From Candidatus Heimdallarchaeota archaeon (GTDB lineage: Archaea; Asgardarchaeota; Heimdallarchaeia; Heimdallarchaeales; Heimdallarchaeaceae), in the NCBI GenBank assembly GCA_019057815.1, contig JAHLWR010000036.1:1-17933 (forward strand): 17,933 nucleotides of DNA, read 5' to 3'. This document shows positions 2,833 to 12,264 of this stretch, piece after piece. Below the pieces are notes generated by a model. It did not search any database. It saw only the letters and a program-made list of their open reading frames with translations, and was not told the origin of the DNA. Position 1 is the first letter of the stretch; the number at the start of each line of letters is the position of its first letter. Made by a program: the position numbers and the translations under genes.

Positions 2833-3303
2833 ATGTCATTCTATAGACTTAATGGTATAAAATTTGACGACTTAGGTAAAGAACTACAGAGATTTTTTGT
2901 TAGTAATAACATTAAAACACCTATAGTTAGCAAAGGTATGATTACCTTCGAAAAAGGCAGTCTTTGGGCTGTAACATCAAAAAACTTCCTTGTTAAAGGG
3001 AAACTTCGGATTCAGTATGATAATCAAGATATTTCATGTAATTTTATGCTAGACCGAACAAAGATCTGGTTAGTTAATGCTATTATAACATTGGTAAGCG
3101 CAGCGCTAATAATAGTTTTGAGTGTGGTATCATTTTACCAAGCATTAGATCTACGGATTTACGAATCATTTTGGATTTCTATGGTGGTTATTTTCGTGTT
3201 AGCAATTTCAATTCCACTAATTTTTACAGACCTCTACCTTGTAAACGCGGCAGAGAAGAAATTCATAGAAAGTTTCGAAATGTGGTTTGGAGATTACCTC
3301 TAG
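2833..3303 (+). CDS. Hypothetical membrane protein (two C-terminal TM helices)
   Basis: 156 aa ORF with hydrophobic segments IWLVNAIITLVSAALIIVLSVV and FWISMVVIFVLAISIPLIF. GTGAT motif before the ATG. Confidence 0.75.
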   Translation: MSFYRLNGIKFDDLGKELQRFFVSNNIKTPIVSKGMITFEKGSLWAVTSKNFLVKGKLRIQYDNQDISCNFMLDRTKIWLVNAIITLVSAALIIVLSVVSFYQALDLRIYESFWISMVVIFVLAISIPLIFTDLYLVNAAEKKFIESFEMWFGDYL

Positions 3304-3884: not shown

Positions 3885-5348
3885 ATGCATGATTACAATT
3901 ATCCTATTCAGCGAGAGATTGTTTTTGTAATTCTTGGTTCAGCTTTAATCATTATAGCAGGATTCTTGAATGTTTATAATCAATTTTTTCAAAGTTGGTT
4001 TTTTTACTGGGAGTACACCGCATATATCTTATTCTTACTTGTTGCTATCGCTCTTATTTTCATTGCTATAGGAATTAGAAATATCACTGAAATCTATTTC
4101 ATCGATCATATTACAAAAACAGGTAAGCAAACAGCTATTTGGTTTTATATCTATTCAGGTTCAATATTGTTAAATATGGCTGTCTTTGGTTGGCCTGGTG
4201 TATCTGGTTTTGTAGGATTAACTATCGTTTTAGGTAGAATTATGGGCTTTTGGAAGATGAACAAAACACTTGAGAAAATTAAACGAATATTTGATCTAAG
4301 AGTTGGAAGTTCTTTCTATCCAATATTTGGTTTTTATTCGGTCATAATAGCCTTTCTGGGAGGAGTAGCTAGTTATGCTGATGATGAAGTTTTTCAGATT
4401 TTTCTTTTTACGTTTAATGGTACAATAGAATCATTGCTTCTGTTAATTGTGGGTTTAAAGCTTATCATCGATTTTAGAAGAATAAGTACTTTCATTCTAG
4501 AAAAAGATATCAAACCTTACACAAGAAAAAACCATCCGCAAAAAAAAGCTATGATTTCAAAATTACAGCAGAAAACGCAGTTAAAAGAAACAGTTACACG
4601 AATTTCAGAACTTCAAGATGATAAGAAGGAAAAAGTTTCAGTGGATACCCCTATAGAAGAAAAAATGGAGTATATTACGTGTCCTCTTTGTGGAGAACTA
4701 ACTTTAGCTCTACTTAATACTTGTATAAATTGCAGAGAAACTATTTCTAAAGAAAAAAGAAAGATCTTCAGAAGGGAGAAATTAATTCAACGATTAACAA
4801 TTGCAGGAACTTTTGTCTTTTTTATCATTTACGCTTTTATATATGGCAATTATTTAATCAAGATATTAGCTGGTATTTTAACGATCGTTCTCATTATTCT
4901 TGTATCCTTACGCTATTTTCTAAATTTTCTAGCTAATAAAGGATCTGAGTTTGCTTATGGTTTTAACGAGATTCTCTACCTCTTTGTAGGTGTTCCAGTT
5001 ATGTTTGTATCTGCTACTTATCTCCCAATTGCTTTTTTCTTCTCTTTTTTAAAACCTGATAAAGAATGGGTATTAATTGTCTTATACGTTATGCTAGCAA
5101 TATTTGAAATCTTGTCGATTTATTACTTATTGAGAAAATACTTACGTGATAAAAAGATGACCTTTTTCCAATATCTAAAGTACATGTTTGATTTTAAGAA
5201 ACGAGCGGAAGAAGCGCGACTATTTAGGGAAAAAGCTGAACAAATGAATACTTTCTATGACAATATCTATAAAGTTAAAGATAAAGCTGCAAAGCGTATG
5301 AAAGAACGTTCAAAGGGATTTAAAGAATTTGATTGGAAATCTAGATAA
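3885..5348 (+). CDS. Polytopic membrane protein with central zinc ribbon
   Basis: 487 aa. About 5-6 N-terminal TM segments, a charged linker, CPLCG-x9-CINC, about 4 further TM segments and a charged C-tail. Confidence 0.8.
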   Translation: MHDYNYPIQREIVFVILGSALIIIAGFLNVYNQFFQSWFFYWEYTAYILFLLVAIALIFIAIGIRNITEIYFIDHITKTGKQTAIWFYIYSGSILLNMAVFGWPGVSGFVGLTIVLGRIMGFWKMNKTLEKIKRIFDLRVGSSFYPIFGFYSVIIAFLGGVASYADDEVFQIFLFTFNGTIESLLLLIVGLKLIIDFRRISTFILEKDIKPYTRKNHPQKKAMISKLQQKTQLKETVTRISELQDDKKEKVSVDTPIEEKMEYITCPLCGELTLALLNTCINCRETISKEKRKIFRREKLIQRLTIAGTFVFFIIYAFIYGNYLIKILAGILTIVLIILVSLRYFLNFLANKGSEFAYGFNEILYLFVGVPVMFVSATYLPIAFFFSFLKPDKEWVLIVLYVMLAIFEILSIYYLLRKYLRDKKMTFFQYLKYMFDFKKRAEEARLFREKAEQMNTFYDNIYKVKDKAAKRMKERSKGFKEFDWKSR

Positions 5349-5553
5349 AAAATAATCAAATTAAATGAATAATTTTAATTTATCTTTGCAATAAGAGCAA
5401 AGTAAAGTAAGCTCAAATCTTTTAAGGAAAATCGAACGAATAATAATAGATAACCAAAAACTATTTCTTTTTCTTTATCATGTCAGTTGTTTTCTTGTGT
5501 ATTCTTTAACCTTTAGCTCATATTTAGAATAACAACCTCAAAAAGTGATTACA

Positions 5554-5610
5554 ATGTTTGACCCTGAAGATGGTGATGAAGATATCACACCTCCACTTTG
5601 GAGACCGTAA
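5554..5610 (+). CDS. Small acidic peptide 1 (MFDPEDGDEDITPPLWRP)
   Basis: ATG..TAA, 18 aa, AAGTGATT SD-like motif, paralogous to the two neighbouring ORFs. Confidence 0.75.
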   Translation: MFDPEDGDEDITPPLWRP

Positions 5611-5763
5611 GAAAGCAAGCTTTCTTCTCTTTTCTTTTCTTTTTTTGAATTCTTTAGAAAAAACATTGTTTGATAGCTAGATGACATCATTTGTCACTTA
5701 GTTTCTGTGCTGCTCTTTAATCTTCAGACCATATTTAGATTAACAAACTCAAAAGTGATTACA

Positions 5764-5820
5764 ATGTTTGACCCTGAAGATGGCGATGATGCGATTTTAC
5801 CTCCTGTTTGGCAACCTTAG
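5764..5820 (+). CDS. Small acidic peptide 2 (MFDPEDGDDAILPPVWQP)
   Basis: ATG..TAG, 18 aa, AAGTGATT SD-like motif, frame and stop position conserved with the other copies. Confidence 0.75.
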   Translation: MFDPEDGDDAILPPVWQP

Positions 5821-5961
5821 CCCTTGAGGAAGCGTTTTCTTTTTCTTTTTTATTTTTGAATTCTTTAGAATAAAACAGTGCTTAATAGCTTGATAACATT
5901 AACTGTCAGTTTTTTTCTTGTGTTCTTTAATATCTTCATTTCTATATAAAAGGTGATTATC

Positions 5962-6030
5962 ATGAGTAGAAAACTATTTGACCCTGAGGATGGAGACGAA
6001 GATATCACACCTCCGCTTTGGCAACCTTAG
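5962..6030 (+). CDS. Small acidic peptide 3 (MSRKLFDPEDGDEDITPPLWQP)
   Basis: ATG..TAG, 22 aa, strong AGGTGAT SD. Differs from copy 1 mostly at synonymous third positions. Confidence 0.8.
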   Translation: MSRKLFDPEDGDEDITPPLWQP

Positions 6031-6171
6031 CCTTTGAGGAAGCATTTTTCTTTTCTTTTTTTTGTAAAATCAATGTAAAATTAGATGTGTGCTAATATAA
6101 AAACTGCAATCTAACTGCAACGTGGTACGATAGCTATTTAAAAACAAAAACAATATTGTCAACTGAGTAAG

Positions 6172-7770
6172 GTGGTTTATTTGTCACTTGAAGACATGGA
6201 AAAACAGATAGAGGAGATAGAAAACAGTGAGGATCTTTGGTCAGCTGTTAAATTTTTACAATTATTTGCATCCAATGAAAGATCTCATGGTGTTGTAGAT
6301 CTAATTGATCAGACTACAGAGAAATGTAAACTTATAGATGACAAAAAAGCATTAGTAAACCTTTATGGGTTAAAAATACCTGTCATTTATAATTTCCAAG
6401 ATAAACTTCTAGTAGCTTCTCAACTAATCAATGAAATGCTAACTATTTCCGAAGAGATAAATTATCAAGAGGGTACAGCATGGGCTTATTCTTACATGTG
6501 GTATGTTGAAAAAATTAAAGGAAATAAAGAAGAAAGTGTTAAAGCTATGGATAAATCTCTTGAAATTTTGAACCAATTAACAGATTGTGATAAATATATC
6601 TATCATTTTGTGAAATATTCTTATGCTATAGAAAAATGGTTAGAAGAACATGATTCTAAAAGCATTCAAATATTTGAGGAGTGTTTAATTTATTTTTATC
6701 ACAACAAATTTCACAGAAGTTTAGCTCAAACACTTGGAATTTTAAGTGTCATTTATTTTAAAAAACTCGATAATAAAAAAGCTCTGGAAATTAGCATAAA
6801 AATACTCGCTAATAGATCTTTATTTGACAAAATGCCCTATGATGTCAAAGGAATCGTTTATTATTTCACTGGTTTAGCACATTTACTAAACTTAAACCTA
6901 TCTTTGGCTGAAACATCCTTTGCAGACTCATATGCCATTCTAAAAACAGTTAGCGAAAAAAACATTTATTTCAGCAATTTTATAATTTTACACTCCCATT
7001 CTTCTACTGTTAAAGCCTTGCAGGGTAAAATCGCCCAAGCCTTTGAAATGATTAATGAAGTAGATAAATTACTTAAAAAAGAATTTTATATTAAGAACCT
7101 TGATAAGAATACAAAAAGTCAGATTTTGCATACACTCAATTTAATCAAATTCTACGTATATTCACGCAAAATAGACTTTGACGTAGAGACATCCCAAGAT
7201 TTAATTGATGAAATAATCGAAGGTTGTAAGAACCATTATAGTAATTTCTTGTTGCTAACGGAATTCATCTTAAATGCTAATTTAGATGACCACACGTTGA
7301 AAGAACTATCGAATACAAATTATTTTAGTCTTAACAGAGTAAAGCACATAATCGAGTTCGTGATAGAAAAAACAACAACTGATGAAAATATCAGTGATGA
7401 ACAAAGACATCTGAATTGTATTGACATTTTAAATAATAGAATAAGAACTGACAAAACCACTTTTATTGAAGATACTTATGCAGATTTGCTTTTAGCTCAA
7501 GAATTACTTGATCTACAACTTTTTGACGAAATTTATCCCTTACTCAGAAAATATAAAGATCAACTTCACAAAATCGAAGTTTTGGAGATGAGAATCTTCA
7601 TGAAGGCCTTTATTCAAGTGGGAGAATTTAGAAATGGTGACACTCTTGCGCCAGCAGTTCAATACATGGCTATAAAGAAGTGTAGGAAGCATCGTTTCAC
7701 AAAATTGGAACAACTGCTTTTTCAGCATCAACAAACCATGAGAAATTGGGTTCTACCCTCTTATCTTTAA
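6172..7770 (+). CDS. Large all-helical TPR-like repeat protein
   Basis: 532 aa with TPR-like motifs GTAWAYSYMWYVEKIKGNKEESVKAMDKSLEI, LAQTLGILSVIYFKKLDNKKALEISIKIL and GIVYYFTGLAHLLNLNLSLAETSFADSYAI. Start could instead be TTG 6181, which follows AAGGTGG. Confidence 0.75.
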   Translation: MVYLSLEDMEKQIEEIENSEDLWSAVKFLQLFASNERSHGVVDLIDQTTEKCKLIDDKKALVNLYGLKIPVIYNFQDKLLVASQLINEMLTISEEINYQEGTAWAYSYMWYVEKIKGNKEESVKAMDKSLEILNQLTDCDKYIYHFVKYSYAIEKWLEEHDSKSIQIFEECLIYFYHNKFHRSLAQTLGILSVIYFKKLDNKKALEISIKILANRSLFDKMPYDVKGIVYYFTGLAHLLNLNLSLAETSFADSYAILKTVSEKNIYFSNFIILHSHSSTVKALQGKIAQAFEMINEVDKLLKKEFYIKNLDKNTKSQILHTLNLIKFYVYSRKIDFDVETSQDLIDEIIEGCKNHYSNFLLLTEFILNANLDDHTLKELSNTNYFSLNRVKHIIEFVIEKTTTDENISDEQRHLNCIDILNNRIRTDKTTFIEDTYADLLLAQELLDLQLFDEIYPLLRKYKDQLHKIEVLEMRIFMKAFIQVGEFRNGDTLAPAVQYMAIKKCRKHRFTKLEQLLFQHQQTMRNWVLPSYL

Positions 7771-7969: not shown

Positions 7970-8281
7970 ATGTTCAACCAGAAATTAGACAAATATCTCG
8001 ATAAATGTATTGATGATTTAATAAGGTTAAAATTTATTTCCTATAACTGGAATGATTGTTACTGCTTAAAAGATCGTCTCCCTTATTCTATTTACACTAA
8101 ACTAAAAGCTTTCTTTGAATGGAATCAAGAGTTCCAAGATTATACAGTTTCACAACCAAAGGAATTGACCAAATCTTTGGTAGAGCTGGGTTTTTGGTCT
8201 TTAGATATGGAGCTTGAGAAGCGAAGAGAGTTATTTAAAATAGTGGATGAATGGAATAAAGAACTATTTAATGATAGTTAA
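7970..8281 (+). CDS. Hypothetical protein
   Basis: 103 aa ATG ORF filling the intergenic gap. No recognised motif. Confidence 0.6.
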   Translation: MFNQKLDKYLDKCIDDLIRLKFISYNWNDCYCLKDRLPYSIYTKLKAFFEWNQEFQDYTVSQPKELTKSLVELGFWSLDMELEKRRELFKIVDEWNKELFNDS

Positions 8282-10659: not shown

Positions 10660-10830
10660 TCACATTAAGCGTAGCTAGGTAGTTTCAAGCTCTGGGATTA
10701 CACCTCCAACACACAGTGTTAACGGAGGTGAGGGGGTTCATCTCCTCACCGGGACTCATTACTGGAGACTATGTTATTGAGAACCTTAGGCACTCACTCC
10801 AGCTCCGGGGGTAAGCAGATGACTCTGCTT
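10660..10830 (-). ncRNA. Putative omegaRNA (scaffold plus guide) of TnpB
   Basis: GC-rich hairpins just 3' of tnpB (cacctcc/ggaggtg 10701-10730; ggtgagg/cctcacc 10727-10750). On the minus strand the structured part ends in ...GAGCTTGAAAC at 10682. Boundaries approximate. Confidence 0.6.
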
Positions 10831-12264
10831 CGTCTGTAGCCATTGGCTTAAGACAGGGAAGACACGAAAAGAACTGAGTGGAAAGAACTTTCCACTAACT
10901 TGATCTTTGATGGAGTTATACTTTGGTTGCAGAACGTATTTTATCAGTCTTTTAGCTATATTTTTCGCTCCATTCAAGTCTGCATTAAGGTTATATCCAC
11001 AGGTATGGCAGATGAATGTAGGTTGGTTAGGACGGATAGTGTGATAGGATTCACAACGCGAACAGCAAGAAGAGGTCCACGATTCACCGATTGCTAGTAT
11101 CTTGTGCTCCTCCCATCCTTGTAAAGAGAGCTTGAATTTGAGTAATTCTACCACCCTCCTGTAATTCCATTTTTGGACATTTTTACGGGAACGAGGGTGG
11201 AAATTGCCTCTAAAGTGGTTCTTACGGATATGAATGGGGAAGCCTACCACCACGTAGAGATCATATCTCTTGCCAACAGAGAGAATATACTTTACTAATC
11301 TGTTGACATAGGTGTGGTCAGTTAATTTATGCTCTGTTCTTTTTCTCTTTCTGAGCGATTTAAGTTGTTGTAGAAGACTGTTTTTCTTACTTACACTTAA
11401 GCTAGTTTTAGCAATAATTTTCTGCAGTTTAGCGATTTTTTGTTCTGTTTCCTTTAATAGTTTTTTTCGTGTCTTATCAGACCAGAATCTGATCTCATGA
11501 CGATTGATTGTTCCTTTCGGAGTTAAGAGTGCACTTACTGCACGTTTGTTGATTCCTAAGTCTATCCCCAGCACAGCTGGAGGACGAGAAGAAGAATATT
11601 TCTCTGGAACATTAAGCAAGATGAAATGTATCCACCATTCCTTCTTCTTGGGATAGTAGAGCACTTCAAGCGCCCGTAATTTTACCTGATTTAGTTTATA
11701 TTCATGATAGGGTGAACAAGCTAGAGGTAACCACAATTTCTCGTGTATGTGGGTTTTGTTCTTCGTTGTATCTAAGGAGTCTCTTATACCTACCCACCAT
11801 CGGGCAATGGAATTCGAAGGAGAACAAGTAAGAATAAACCTTTTGGCATGTGATAGCTGTATACGAGGGATTTTTTTTAGTTGAGGATCTTTAGCAGGTG
11901 CTGAATTCTTTGCTTGTTGACTATGATAGATAGCTACAGCGTTATCTCTACATTCTTGCAGTTCGTTCTGGGAGCAGCGTGGGAAGTTCTTTTTCAAATC
12001 ATGTCTAGCTGTATGACGATTGGGTAGTTTATTCTTCTTATATGTGGTAAGAGTAAGATGGTCTAGTTTCGCTTTATTAACCTTCTTTTTACCCTTCTTT
12101 GTTGTTGCTAGTTGCTCTTCATTGTGATATATTGCTTTGAGGTACTGTTTGATTATTCTCGAATCTCTCCCCGTAATCTGTTCCAGTCTCTTTCTTTTCC
12201 GTGTTGTGATTACGTCTGTTTTAACTCTCACTTTTACAGTCGTCCTCACTCCACTTCTCGTCAT
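10786..12264 (-). CDS. tnpB: TnpB family RNA-guided endonuclease with rearranged RuvC-II
   Basis: RuvC-I VLGIDLGIN, zinc finger CSRC..CHTC, RuvC-III NADLNGAKNI. The RuvC-II position reads VVVGFP, with an alternative Glu in IGESWTS. Confidence 0.92.
   Translation of the reverse strand: MTRSGVRTTVKVRVKTDVITTRKRKRLEQITGRDSRIIKQYLKAIYHNEEQLATTKKGKKKVNKAKLDHLTLTTYKKNKLPNRHTARHDLKKNFPRCSQNELQECRDNAVAIYHSQQAKNSAPAKDPQLKKIPRIQLSHAKRFILTCSPSNSIARWWVGIRDSLDTTKNKTHIHEKLWLPLACSPYHEYKLNQVKLRALEVLYYPKKKEWWIHFILLNVPEKYSSSRPPAVLGIDLGINKRAVSALLTPKGTINRHEIRFWSDKTRKKLLKETEQKIAKLQKIIAKTSLSVSKKNSLLQQLKSLRKRKRTEHKLTDHTYVNRLVKYILSVGKRYDLYVVVGFPIHIRKNHFRGNFHPRSRKNVQKWNYRRVVELLKFKLSLQGWEEHKILAIGESWTSSCCSRCESYHTIRPNQPTFICHTCGYNLNADLNGAKNIAKRLIKYVLQPKYNSIKDQVSGKFFPLSSFRVFPVLSQWLQTKQSHLLTPGAGVSA

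Follow-up and report, generated by a model that had tools for sequence, protein, structure and literature searches.

The contig JAHLWR010000036.1 of a Candidatus Heimdallarchaeota archaeon (assembly GCA_019057815.1) raises a simple question: what is the role of three tiny open reading frames (ORFs) placed one after the other in front of a gene for a tetratricopeptide repeat (TPR)-like protein? The window analysed is the entire 17.9-kb contig (17,933 nucleotides), part of a genome of 3.74 Mb with a G+C content of 32.8%. The three micro-ORFs lie on the plus strand upstream of the TPR gene and encode acidic peptides of 18–22 residues, containing proline and tryptophan. The data reported below support a functional link between the peptide genes and the TPR protein, since the two co-occur, are adjacent, and have diversified together. 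The pair is a strong candidate for an undescribed system composed of a peptide and its binding partner. The reading that we favour, with a probability of about one half, is that a cytoplasmic peptide binds the neighbouring TPR protein, the two forming a self-contained, lineage-specific two-component cassette.

The coupling between the two kinds of genes can be observed in the genome itself. All the intact matches to PP-x-W-x-P-stop retrieved from it (9/9) belong to the peptide family, to which one decayed copy must be added. The eight peptide genes that could be assessed are all located upstream of a TPR paralog, at five loci, and the ninth lies at a contig end. The genome harbors three close paralogs and one distant paralog of the TPR protein (53, 43, 41, and 22% identity), in front of each of which one or two peptide genes of this type are found. 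The relatives screened were 41 genomes, which were searched with a 35-nt degenerate DNA pattern representing the peptide core and with its reversed version as a control: the former gave 114 matches in 19 of the 41 genomes, the latter none. Homologs of the TPR protein were found in 20 out of 24 genomes of one family and in none of the 16 genomes from three sister families; up to ten copies are present per genome, often in tandem, and some of them are broken. Within this set, peptide matches are restricted to genomes possessing close TPR homologs, the pattern being absent from two genomes with only distant homologs (28% identity or less) and from four without any. Most of the peptide matches (95/114) are co-oriented with a TPR match and located no more than 900 nt upstream of it, with a median gap of 146 nt. 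The original prediction, which proposed a peptide-TPR module from the letters of this locus, called for a check of co-occurrence upstream of the TPR homologs; such an adjacent peptide gene is carried by 70 of the 76 close TPR matches, and neither a pattern of TPR genes devoid of peptide ORFs nor frameshifted peptide copies emerged among the homologs. Overall, the pairing recurs more than 100 times in two genera of Heimdallarchaeaceae.

A scan of one genome per prokaryotic species revealed at least 67 loci with a true micro-ORF context and, among the matches listed, all the loci bearing a title correspond to Heimdall-group or archaeal metagenome-assembled genomes. Of the loci examined in the prokaryotic and viral scans, 53 (51 prokaryotic and two viral) lack a micro-ORF context; 52 of them fall in long, non-acidic frames and represent chance matches, the remaining one (L078) being a family member with a non-ATG start. 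These two viral matches, from IMG/VR contigs, both fall in long, non-acidic frames and are attributable to chance, and no true copies were found in IMG/VR. Three intact peptide copies face the 3′ end of a TPR gene in convergent orientation. At a further locus (L061 1182–1542; G022 C12, at 68.6 kb), two intact peptide genes are arranged in tandem with no TPR gene at less than 1.5 kb in either direction, and the genes following the pair are on the opposite strand. Two contigs of the genome under study, C12 (ending at 194828) and C23 (ending at 47106), terminate within a peptide/TPR cassette or immediately past it. The assembly probably breaks at the cassette repeats, so that the number of copies in this genome may be undercounted.

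Is it the peptide, or the nucleic acid encoding it, that is maintained by selection? The peptide core, D-P-x(2-4)-G-D-x4-P-P-x-W-x-P, is almost invariant over 17 residues, and an alignment of 23 members reveals eight invariant residues (D, P, G, D, P, P, W, and P). In 50 unique peptide genes, the invariant D, P, G, D, P, P, and P are encoded by all their synonymous codons, with GAC about as frequent as GAT and with all four Pro and all four Gly codons represented. The pattern used for collecting these genes fixes the invariant residues, not the third codon positions, and a looser search had given the same invariance. The occurrence of invariant residues in all synonymous codons indicates that selection acts on the peptide, not on RNA or DNA. 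The same conclusion had been drawn from copies 1 and 3 of the window, whose common core does exhibit five synonymous codon changes, a TAA/TAG swap, and only one replacement (R/Q); the copies found elsewhere are intact as well and show synonymous variation. In 15 of the 50 members (about 30%), one extra, variable residue follows the last Pro, which weakens the suggestion that the TPR protein clamps a free C-terminus.

Some peculiarities of the peptides deserve mention. In a few members, a Tyr replaces the otherwise invariant Trp (PP-x-Y-F-P-N; L071 11287–11706 on G003 C23, and L124), and these members are paired with a normal TPR homolog. Since two members contain PP-x-Y, a WW domain was sought and none was found in the genome, although this is a weak test, the control genomes being likewise empty. 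A calcium-loop reading (EF-hand-like or other) of D-P-E-D-G-D was discarded by eye, as the spacing does not fit. In one paralog, an in-frame ORF of 44 codons with a Phe/Leu-rich start led to the idea of a hidden N-terminal hydrophobic pre-region; this was ruled out because the frame relation is not conserved and most copies are preceded by a stop at a distance of a few codons, the "hydrophobic" residues of the longer ORF deriving from the translation of a T-rich promoter. In peptide genes 1 and 3, in-frame stops are present 4–7 codons ahead of the ATG, so that no pre-region is hidden there.

The positions that vary define sub-types, which are set by the residues flanking PP (Thr-PP-Leu, Leu-PP-Ala, Gly-PP-Leu, Leu-PP-Gly, and others). 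These flanking residues track the clades of the TPR tree, requiring 20 state changes versus 33–37 in the five label shuffles listed. Arrays of two or three different sub-types before one TPR gene are conserved between species, and the cassettes, with their sets of peptides, remain at the same syntenic positions across species. In the orthologs adjacent to Cdc6, most of the differences at the type-specific Ile-Leu..Ala positions are synonymous. The correspondence between sub-types and clades is partly due to shared descent; nevertheless, the type-specific residues are fixed while synonymous sites are near saturation, so that a type-specific constraint is needed, for which the TPR protein is the sole co-inherited candidate. 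As for the residue between W and P, it is unlike in all 21 pairs of Cdc6-adjacent orthologs and changes 27 times on the TPR tree, nearly as many times as shuffled labels (33–38); acidic residues, Lys, Asn, Gly, and Pro are all missing from this position in the 50 members.

The genes surrounding the cassettes in this genome are unrelated housekeeping ones, i.e., those for phosphoenolpyruvate carboxykinase (PEPCK), ribosomal proteins, Lsm, TGT, aEF-2, Cdc6/Orc1, and an ABC/FtsX pair. The comparison of 68 loci revealed that the TPR gene is the only one recurring with paralogous cassettes, whereas the other recurrent neighbours (Cdc6/Orc1 at 15 loci, PEPCK at 11, and pyrophosphatase at nine) mark orthologous positions, which implies that the cassettes are old, vertically inherited, and self-contained. 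No modifying enzyme is encoded within several kb of the cassettes of the genome, nor among the recurring neighbours of the 68 loci.

How are the micro-genes organized? The array had been described as three micro-ORFs with stops 210 bp apart, each with a (G)GTGAT Shine-Dalgarno sequence and a T-rich tail, and all these features are seen in the window: the stop codons are spaced exactly 210 nt, and repeat finders return a 210-nt tandem unit. The interval assigned to the module, 5480–7770, does include the array and the TPR gene; its left border, though, coincides with the promoter-like beginning of the first repeat unit, the first ORF starting at 5554 (Table 1). In peptide genes 1 and 2, GTGAT lies 4 nt ahead of the ATG. 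Gene 2 is of a different sub-type (Leu-PP) from genes 1 and 3 (Thr-PP), and the nearest public orthologous locus, whose TPR protein is 86% identical, contains two peptide copies rather than three, one per type. The upstream element TGTCA[CG]TT..TTTCT occurs nine times in the genome, in eight cases ahead of peptide genes. The layout consisting of a T-rich upstream element, a TATA-like box, and a short leader bearing a ribosome-binding site (RBS) is repeated in 67 family members from other genomes, 42 of which also possess a T-tract (at least 10 T out of 12 positions) no more than 70 nt 3′ of the peptide gene. Judging from these signals, each micro-gene is predicted to form a small transcription unit of its own, with a TATA-like promoter, a short leader, 18–25 codons, and often a T-tract terminator. 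Two of the micro-ORFs (including peptide gene 3) and one extended ORF are all absent from a collection of 15 billion proteins; they are therefore unannotated and were called there by no gene caller. A search of Rfam with the region 5300–6300 retrieved no family.

Table 1. Coordinates of the peptide genes, of the TPR gene, and of the associated signals in the window.
Feature	Position	Strand	Remarks
Upstream unit of peptide gene 1	5481..5553	+	T-rich element TGTCAG..TTTCTTG..TTCTTTAA, TATA-like; RBS GTGAT at 5545-5549
Peptide gene 1	5554..5610	+	ATG at 5554, TAA at 5608-5610; 18 codons plus stop; Thr before PP
Short hairpin (5611-5624) and T-rich tract (about 5621-5646)	5611..5646	+	Likely archaeal terminator; read from the sequence
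Upstream unit of peptide gene 2	5692..5763	+	RBS GTGAT at 5755-5759
Peptide gene 2	5764..5820	+	ATG at 5764, TAG at 5818-5820; 18 codons plus stop; Leu before PP
T-rich tract 3′ of peptide gene 2	5835..5857	+	Window sequence
Upstream unit of peptide gene 3	5904..5961	+	RBS GGTGAT at 5952-5957
Peptide gene 3	5962..6030	+	ATG at 5962, TAG at 6028-6030; 22 codons plus stop; Thr before PP
T-rich tract 3′ of peptide gene 3	6045..6063	+	Window sequence
Conserved intergenic element	6064..6120	+	Two direct-repeat pairs: GTAAAAT at 6064 and 6075; AACTGCAA at 6102 and 6113; each pair 11 nt apart
TATA-like box TATTTAAAAA	6135..6144	+	About 30 nt before the RBS of the TPR gene; read from the sequence
TPR-superhelix protein	6172..7770	+	532 aa from GTG at 6172

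The nature of the protein encoded downstream of the array was then addressed by comparing both its sequence and its predicted structure. Alternative starts of the TPR gene are TTG 6181 and ATG 6196, the latter corresponding to the public call (524 aa). In the 532-aa protein, Pfam detects a single weak, sub-threshold TPR_12 match, and the sole NCBIfam match is HaaT, a TPR protein of cyclophane RiPPs (peptides made by the ribosome and modified after translation), with an E-value of 0.002 and 16 bits against a cut-off of 1125, i.e., a generic TPR similarity. The AlphaFold2 model, built on a 35-sequence alignment, has a predicted local distance difference test (pLDDT) score of 90.7 and a predicted template modelling (pTM) score of 0.88, and contains 29 helices and no strands; this confident superhelix agrees with the TPR-like character originally attributed to the protein. 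The matches returned by Foldseek are generic TPR superhelices only (LGN/Pins, TSK, APC/C, MalT domain III, and OGT), with neither Rap nor NprR in the top 50. In the VIA search, the helical domain of separase (Z 19.9) is joined by Rap of phage phi105 with its bound peptide (entry 8rte; Z 17.9, 327 residues aligned), an APC/C subunit (Z 17.3), LGN with the Frmpd4 peptide (Z 17.2), and NprR-NprX (entry 4gpk; Z 16.1). With the Atlas model of an all-TPR protein of 526 aa, the alignment extends over 464 residues (template modelling score of 0.69). These fold comparisons indicate that the whole chain is one TPR solenoid, which is as similar to other TPR proteins as it is to peptide-binding receptors.

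Sequence searches are in line with a narrow family. A profile search of 1.84 billion representatives retrieved 95 proteins; the strong matches are of the same size or fragments, and a few longer ones (630–1103 aa) appear at weak E-values only, with no informative distant relative among them. A search aimed at fused, extended versions of the TPR protein was likewise negative. No natural fusion of the peptide with the TPR protein was found either, the long frames upstream of some homologs being out of frame with the peptide. The comparison of the sequence profile with the PDB gave only marginal, generic TPR matches (e.g., IFIT1, E 0.002), and a protein-language-model atlas only unnamed or TPR clusters. 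The TPR protein contains no helix-turn-helix (HTH) domain detectable with Pfam and NCBIfam and no enzymatic, pore-forming, or membrane domain; the lack of an HTH in the protein and that of a signal peptide in the micro-genes had both been noticed from the sequence at the outset. Conservation peaks at residues 441–520, where the mean column identity is 0.77–0.80, versus 0.4–0.6 in the first 320 residues. A prediction of the complex between the TPR protein and peptide 3, both given as alignments, yielded a score of 0.01 and a mark of 0.32 with a tool that is uncalibrated for partners shorter than 30 residues, so that these values bear on binding in neither direction.

What, then, might the cassette do? 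The model that we infer for translation, binding, and switching is the following. The micro-genes would yield cytoplasmic acidic peptides, each of which would be accommodated as an extended ligand in the concave channel of the neighbouring TPR protein. The invariant residues of the peptide would dock on the C-terminal third, which is the strongly conserved part of the protein, and the type-specific positions (the two residues flanking PP) would fit the more variable TPR turns, so that each paralog would have its own set of peptides. Binding might switch the TPR protein between states, for example free or bound to a partner protein, as in the case of Rap and the Phr peptides. The separate promoters, the arrays of two or three distinct peptides, and the intact orphan and convergent copies speak for an action of the peptides in trans, and the best structural matches include TPR receptors solved with a peptide in their groove (Rap, LGN, and NprR). 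On the other hand, several observations weigh against this model. The peptide core is near-invariant while the TPR paralogs diverge down to about 22% identity, a behavior that is unusual for specific ligand-receptor pairs and that would also be compatible with a constraint imposed by one and the same third party (the ribosome, for instance, or an enzyme or target common to all). Peptides of several sub-types often precede a single TPR gene, so that peptides and receptors do not correspond one to one. With separase (Z 19.9) and APC/C scoring as high as Rap does, the analogy with receptors rests on the context and not on specific homology. Lastly, about 10% of the peptide genes have no TPR gene nearby.

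The possible existence of a third party leads to other explanations. If the partner of the peptide were the ribosome, the micro-ORFs would be cis-acting leaders, whose PP-x-W-x-P-stop end would stall translation and control the read-through into the TPR gene. A Pro-Pro, Trp, Pro-stop context does resemble the stalling sequences of TnaC, SecM, and uORF2 of cytomegalovirus (CMV); moreover, 18–25 residues approximate the length of the exit tunnel, the core is invariant while the downstream proteins diverge, as expected with the ribosome as partner, and 95 of the 114 copies are co-oriented upstream of a TPR gene, often with a T-tract in between. This explanation appears highly unlikely, however, given that the TPR gene has its own TATA box past the peptide stop, that the peptide genes form arrays of two or three genes, each with its own promoter and terminator, that the intact orphan pair at L061 has no downstream gene on its strand, and that three intact copies point towards the 3′ end of a convergent TPR gene; in addition, the last Pro is followed by an extra residue in 15 out of 50 members, and a constraint due to the ribosome only would leave the co-variation of the type-specific residues with the TPR clade unexplained. 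If the third party were an enzyme encoded elsewhere, the peptides might be RiPP-like precursors, or give rise to a peptide-derived cofactor, modified for instance at Trp or Pro, with the TPR protein acting in recognition, as a scaffold, or as a chaperone. RiPP loci typically comprise several precursor genes in tandem with an invariant core, a core unchanged across diverged paralogs fits one shared enzyme, and TPR proteins are known in some RiPP clusters, although the match found here, to HaaT, is very weak and generic. Against it stand the lack of any radical-SAM, YcaO, LanC, prenyltransferase, peptidase, or transporter gene beside the cassettes examined, the recurrence of the TPR gene alone with paralogous cassettes, the length of 18 residues, too short for a leader plus a core, and a TPR protein without an enzyme-like fold; the RiPP-like alternative, already contemplated by the original prediction, has no local support and is considered unlikely.

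Two further explanations involve intercellular communication and genetic conflict. In a secreted signalling system of the RRNPP type, the peptide, or its C-terminal PP-x-W-x-P, would leave the cell without a leader, re-enter, and be read by the TPR receptor. Leaderless communication peptides whose secretory process is uncharacterised are mentioned for some RRNPPA systems (PMC12700828). The layout and the expansion of paralogs are reminiscent of Rap-Phr and of the Paenibacillus systems, with many pairs per genome, the best fold matches include Rap and NprR, and the residue lying between W and P is hypervariable even in orthologs, as expected of a site of specificity or diversification. Nonetheless, the peptides are strongly acidic and without any hydrophobic or signal segment, the in-frame stops upstream of genes 1 and 3 leave no space for a pre-region, and no protease or peptide transporter accompanies the cassettes, the lone ABC/FtsX neighbour corresponding to a single syntenic locus; furthermore, the TPR protein lacks an HTH or other output domain, and an invariant core is the opposite of what fast-diverging pheromones display. 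Cell-to-cell signalling by these peptides is thus unsupported, and the explanation is regarded as quite improbable; signalling in the RRNPP sense, to which the locus had been likened, is likewise not supported, as neither an export signal nor an effector or DNA-binding domain was found, nor any homology beyond the generic TPR fold. A slim chance is likewise given to a gene-encoded Asgard peptide code, in which each TPR paralog would read its own peptides, released and sensed between cells, with the specificity residing in the PP-flanking residues and in the hypervariable residue between W and P. In a conflict or addiction module, a short-lived acidic peptide would neutralise the TPR protein, in an antidote-toxin or guard arrangement, and the variable N-terminal turns would sense targets. 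This would agree with the order of the genes (a small acidic one upstream of a larger one), with the lineage-specific expansion (up to 10 copies per genome), the tandem arrays, and several pseudogenes, and with a TPR protein variable in its N-terminal two thirds and conserved in its C-terminal third; but PADLOC, whose library comprises described systems only, matched no defence model in the TPR protein, its paralog, or its neighbours, the protein has no enzymatic or pore-forming domain, the IMG/VR contigs have no true copies, and the surroundings are of a housekeeping kind (Cdc6/Orc1, PEPCK, pyrophosphatase), with positions kept across species, and are not variable islands. A module of this kind is considered unlikely.

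The region between the array and the TPR gene contains further signals. The conserved intergenic element (Table 1) is about 96% identical to that of the paralogous locus on contig 12, whereas the encoded proteins share just 53% identity, and it may be considered a candidate operator of the TPR gene. A double repeat, AACTGCAAT-CT-AACTGCAA, just upstream of the TATA box, occurs at only six sites of the genome, three of which are at TPR genes; besides the window, the six sites comprise G000 C12:112953(-), C23:39945(+), C7:51849(-), C24:68727(-), and C40:101307(-). The other three sites concern proteins of 150 and 272 aa without a Pfam family and a short region of contig 7 with an inverted repeat, possibly a small RNA. 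The six sites suggest a small regulon with a putative DNA-binding factor. A single ACTGCAA is found no more than 200 nt past the peptide stop in 14 of 66 cassettes of other genomes, versus two in control windows. The TATA-like box of the window implies that the TPR gene has its own promoter, and many other cassettes have a TTTATAAAT box in the interval separating the stop of the peptide gene from the start of the TPR gene. When the segment 6015–6290 of the window is compared with the contig 12 paralog (L001 7770–8040, minus strand), a mosaic of identity can be observed: the end of the peptide gene with the next 95 nt, and the RBS with the first 27 TPR codons, are about 96–100% identical, and the peptide cores, the TATA region, and the remaining protein (53% identity) are not so conserved. 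Patchy gene conversion or, alternatively, cis-elements under strong constraint might account for this mosaic.

As regards the other genes of the window, the cassette is flanked on one side by a gene for a multi-pass membrane protein of 487 aa, with a Cys-x2-Cys..Cys-x2-Cys ribbon at its centre (3885–5348, plus strand), and on the other by a gene for a 103-aa protein (7970–8281, plus strand); neither product has a family match, and the nearest public relative shows synteny for both genes. A 492-aa ORF (10786–12264, minus strand), some 3 kb downstream of the cassette, contains a Cas12f1-like TNB domain (transposon-associated nuclease of the TnpB/IscB type). The plus strand also encodes a leucine-rich-repeat protein (1408–2571) and a 156-aa protein (2833–3303) with a sub-threshold match to a eukaryotic COPI-associated family (20 bits, cut-off 30).

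Full-text literature searches retrieved no description of the peptide and TPR family, and we know of no gene-encoded peptide-receptor pair described in archaea. More than 100 unannotated micro-genes are tied to a lineage-specific TPR protein in the archaea closest to eukaryotes, and they show that Asgard coding sequence below the cut-off of gene callers is missed. The hypothesis of a peptide-TPR interaction can be put directly to the test using synthetic peptides and a single recombinant protein, since the only Trp of the peptide provides a built-in fluorescence probe. Should binding occur, the series of paralogs would offer natural matched and mismatched pairs for studying the specificity of TPR grooves, and the output of the system would amount to a new path of regulation in the biology of Asgard cells. 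Should the peptides act between cells, this would be the first peptide-based communication system of archaea, in the lineage closest to eukaryotes.

The systems with which the cassette can be compared share with it some features and not others, the nearest in their presumed way of working being cassettes of the Rap-Phr type and the eukaryotic complexes of a TPR superhelix with an extended peptide. Like Rap-Phr, NprR-NprX, and the RRNPP(A) systems of Bacillota, phages, and plasmids, it couples a receptor-sized, all-TPR protein, predicted to be cytoplasmic, with a tiny peptide gene beside it, and many diverged paralogous pairs coexist in the same genome. In RRNPP(A) proteins the output depends on an N-terminal HTH or, in Rap, on a three-helix bundle that binds a response regulator; the TPR protein described here resembles Rap in lacking an HTH, but it exceeds the receptors in length by about 150 residues and has an additional, conserved C-terminal part. 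RRNPP(A) receptors are homologous to Rap, Rgg, NprR, PlcR, PrgX, or AimR; their propeptides bear a Sec or PptAB export signal and are processed to a short mature peptide, re-imported by an oligopeptide permease in a response that follows cell density. Moreover, no sequence homology with these systems is detectable (Pfam, NCBIfam), the host is an archaeon, the peptide gene is upstream and not downstream and has no secretion signal, the whole product of 18–25 residues is conserved in place of a short C-terminal piece, and its core is invariant across paralogs. With no sign of an exported propeptide, no recognisable output domain, and no specific homology shown, and with an archaeal host, the cassette is not regarded as a member of RRNPP. 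The likeness to TnaC, SecM, and CMV uORF2 concerns a short conserved peptide with Trp and Pro near a Pro-stop, encoded upstream and in the same orientation; separate promoters, tandem arrays, orphan and convergent copies, and residues co-varying with the partner set the micro-genes apart from them. Very short tandem genes and an invariant core are shared with multi-copy RiPP precursors and with PqqA, from which the cassettes examined differ in having no modifying enzyme and the TPR protein as sole constant partner.

A last comparison concerns eukaryotic TPR proteins that bind acidic peptides. LGN/Pins, with its ligands Inscuteable, NuMA, and Frmpd4, is a top fold match in both searches, and LGN and Pins enclose extended, acidic peptides of about 20–30 residues within their superhelix. 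The TPR domain of kinesin light chain is described as reading W-acidic or Y-acidic motifs, in which acidic residues surround a Trp or Tyr (PMC6214655). An acidic, Trp-containing motif is also what the archaeal peptides would present to their proposed partner, although the motif is a different one and no homology has been shown. The ligands of LGN/Pins and of kinesin light chain are segments of large proteins, whereas those proposed for the archaeal TPR protein would be stand-alone gene products.

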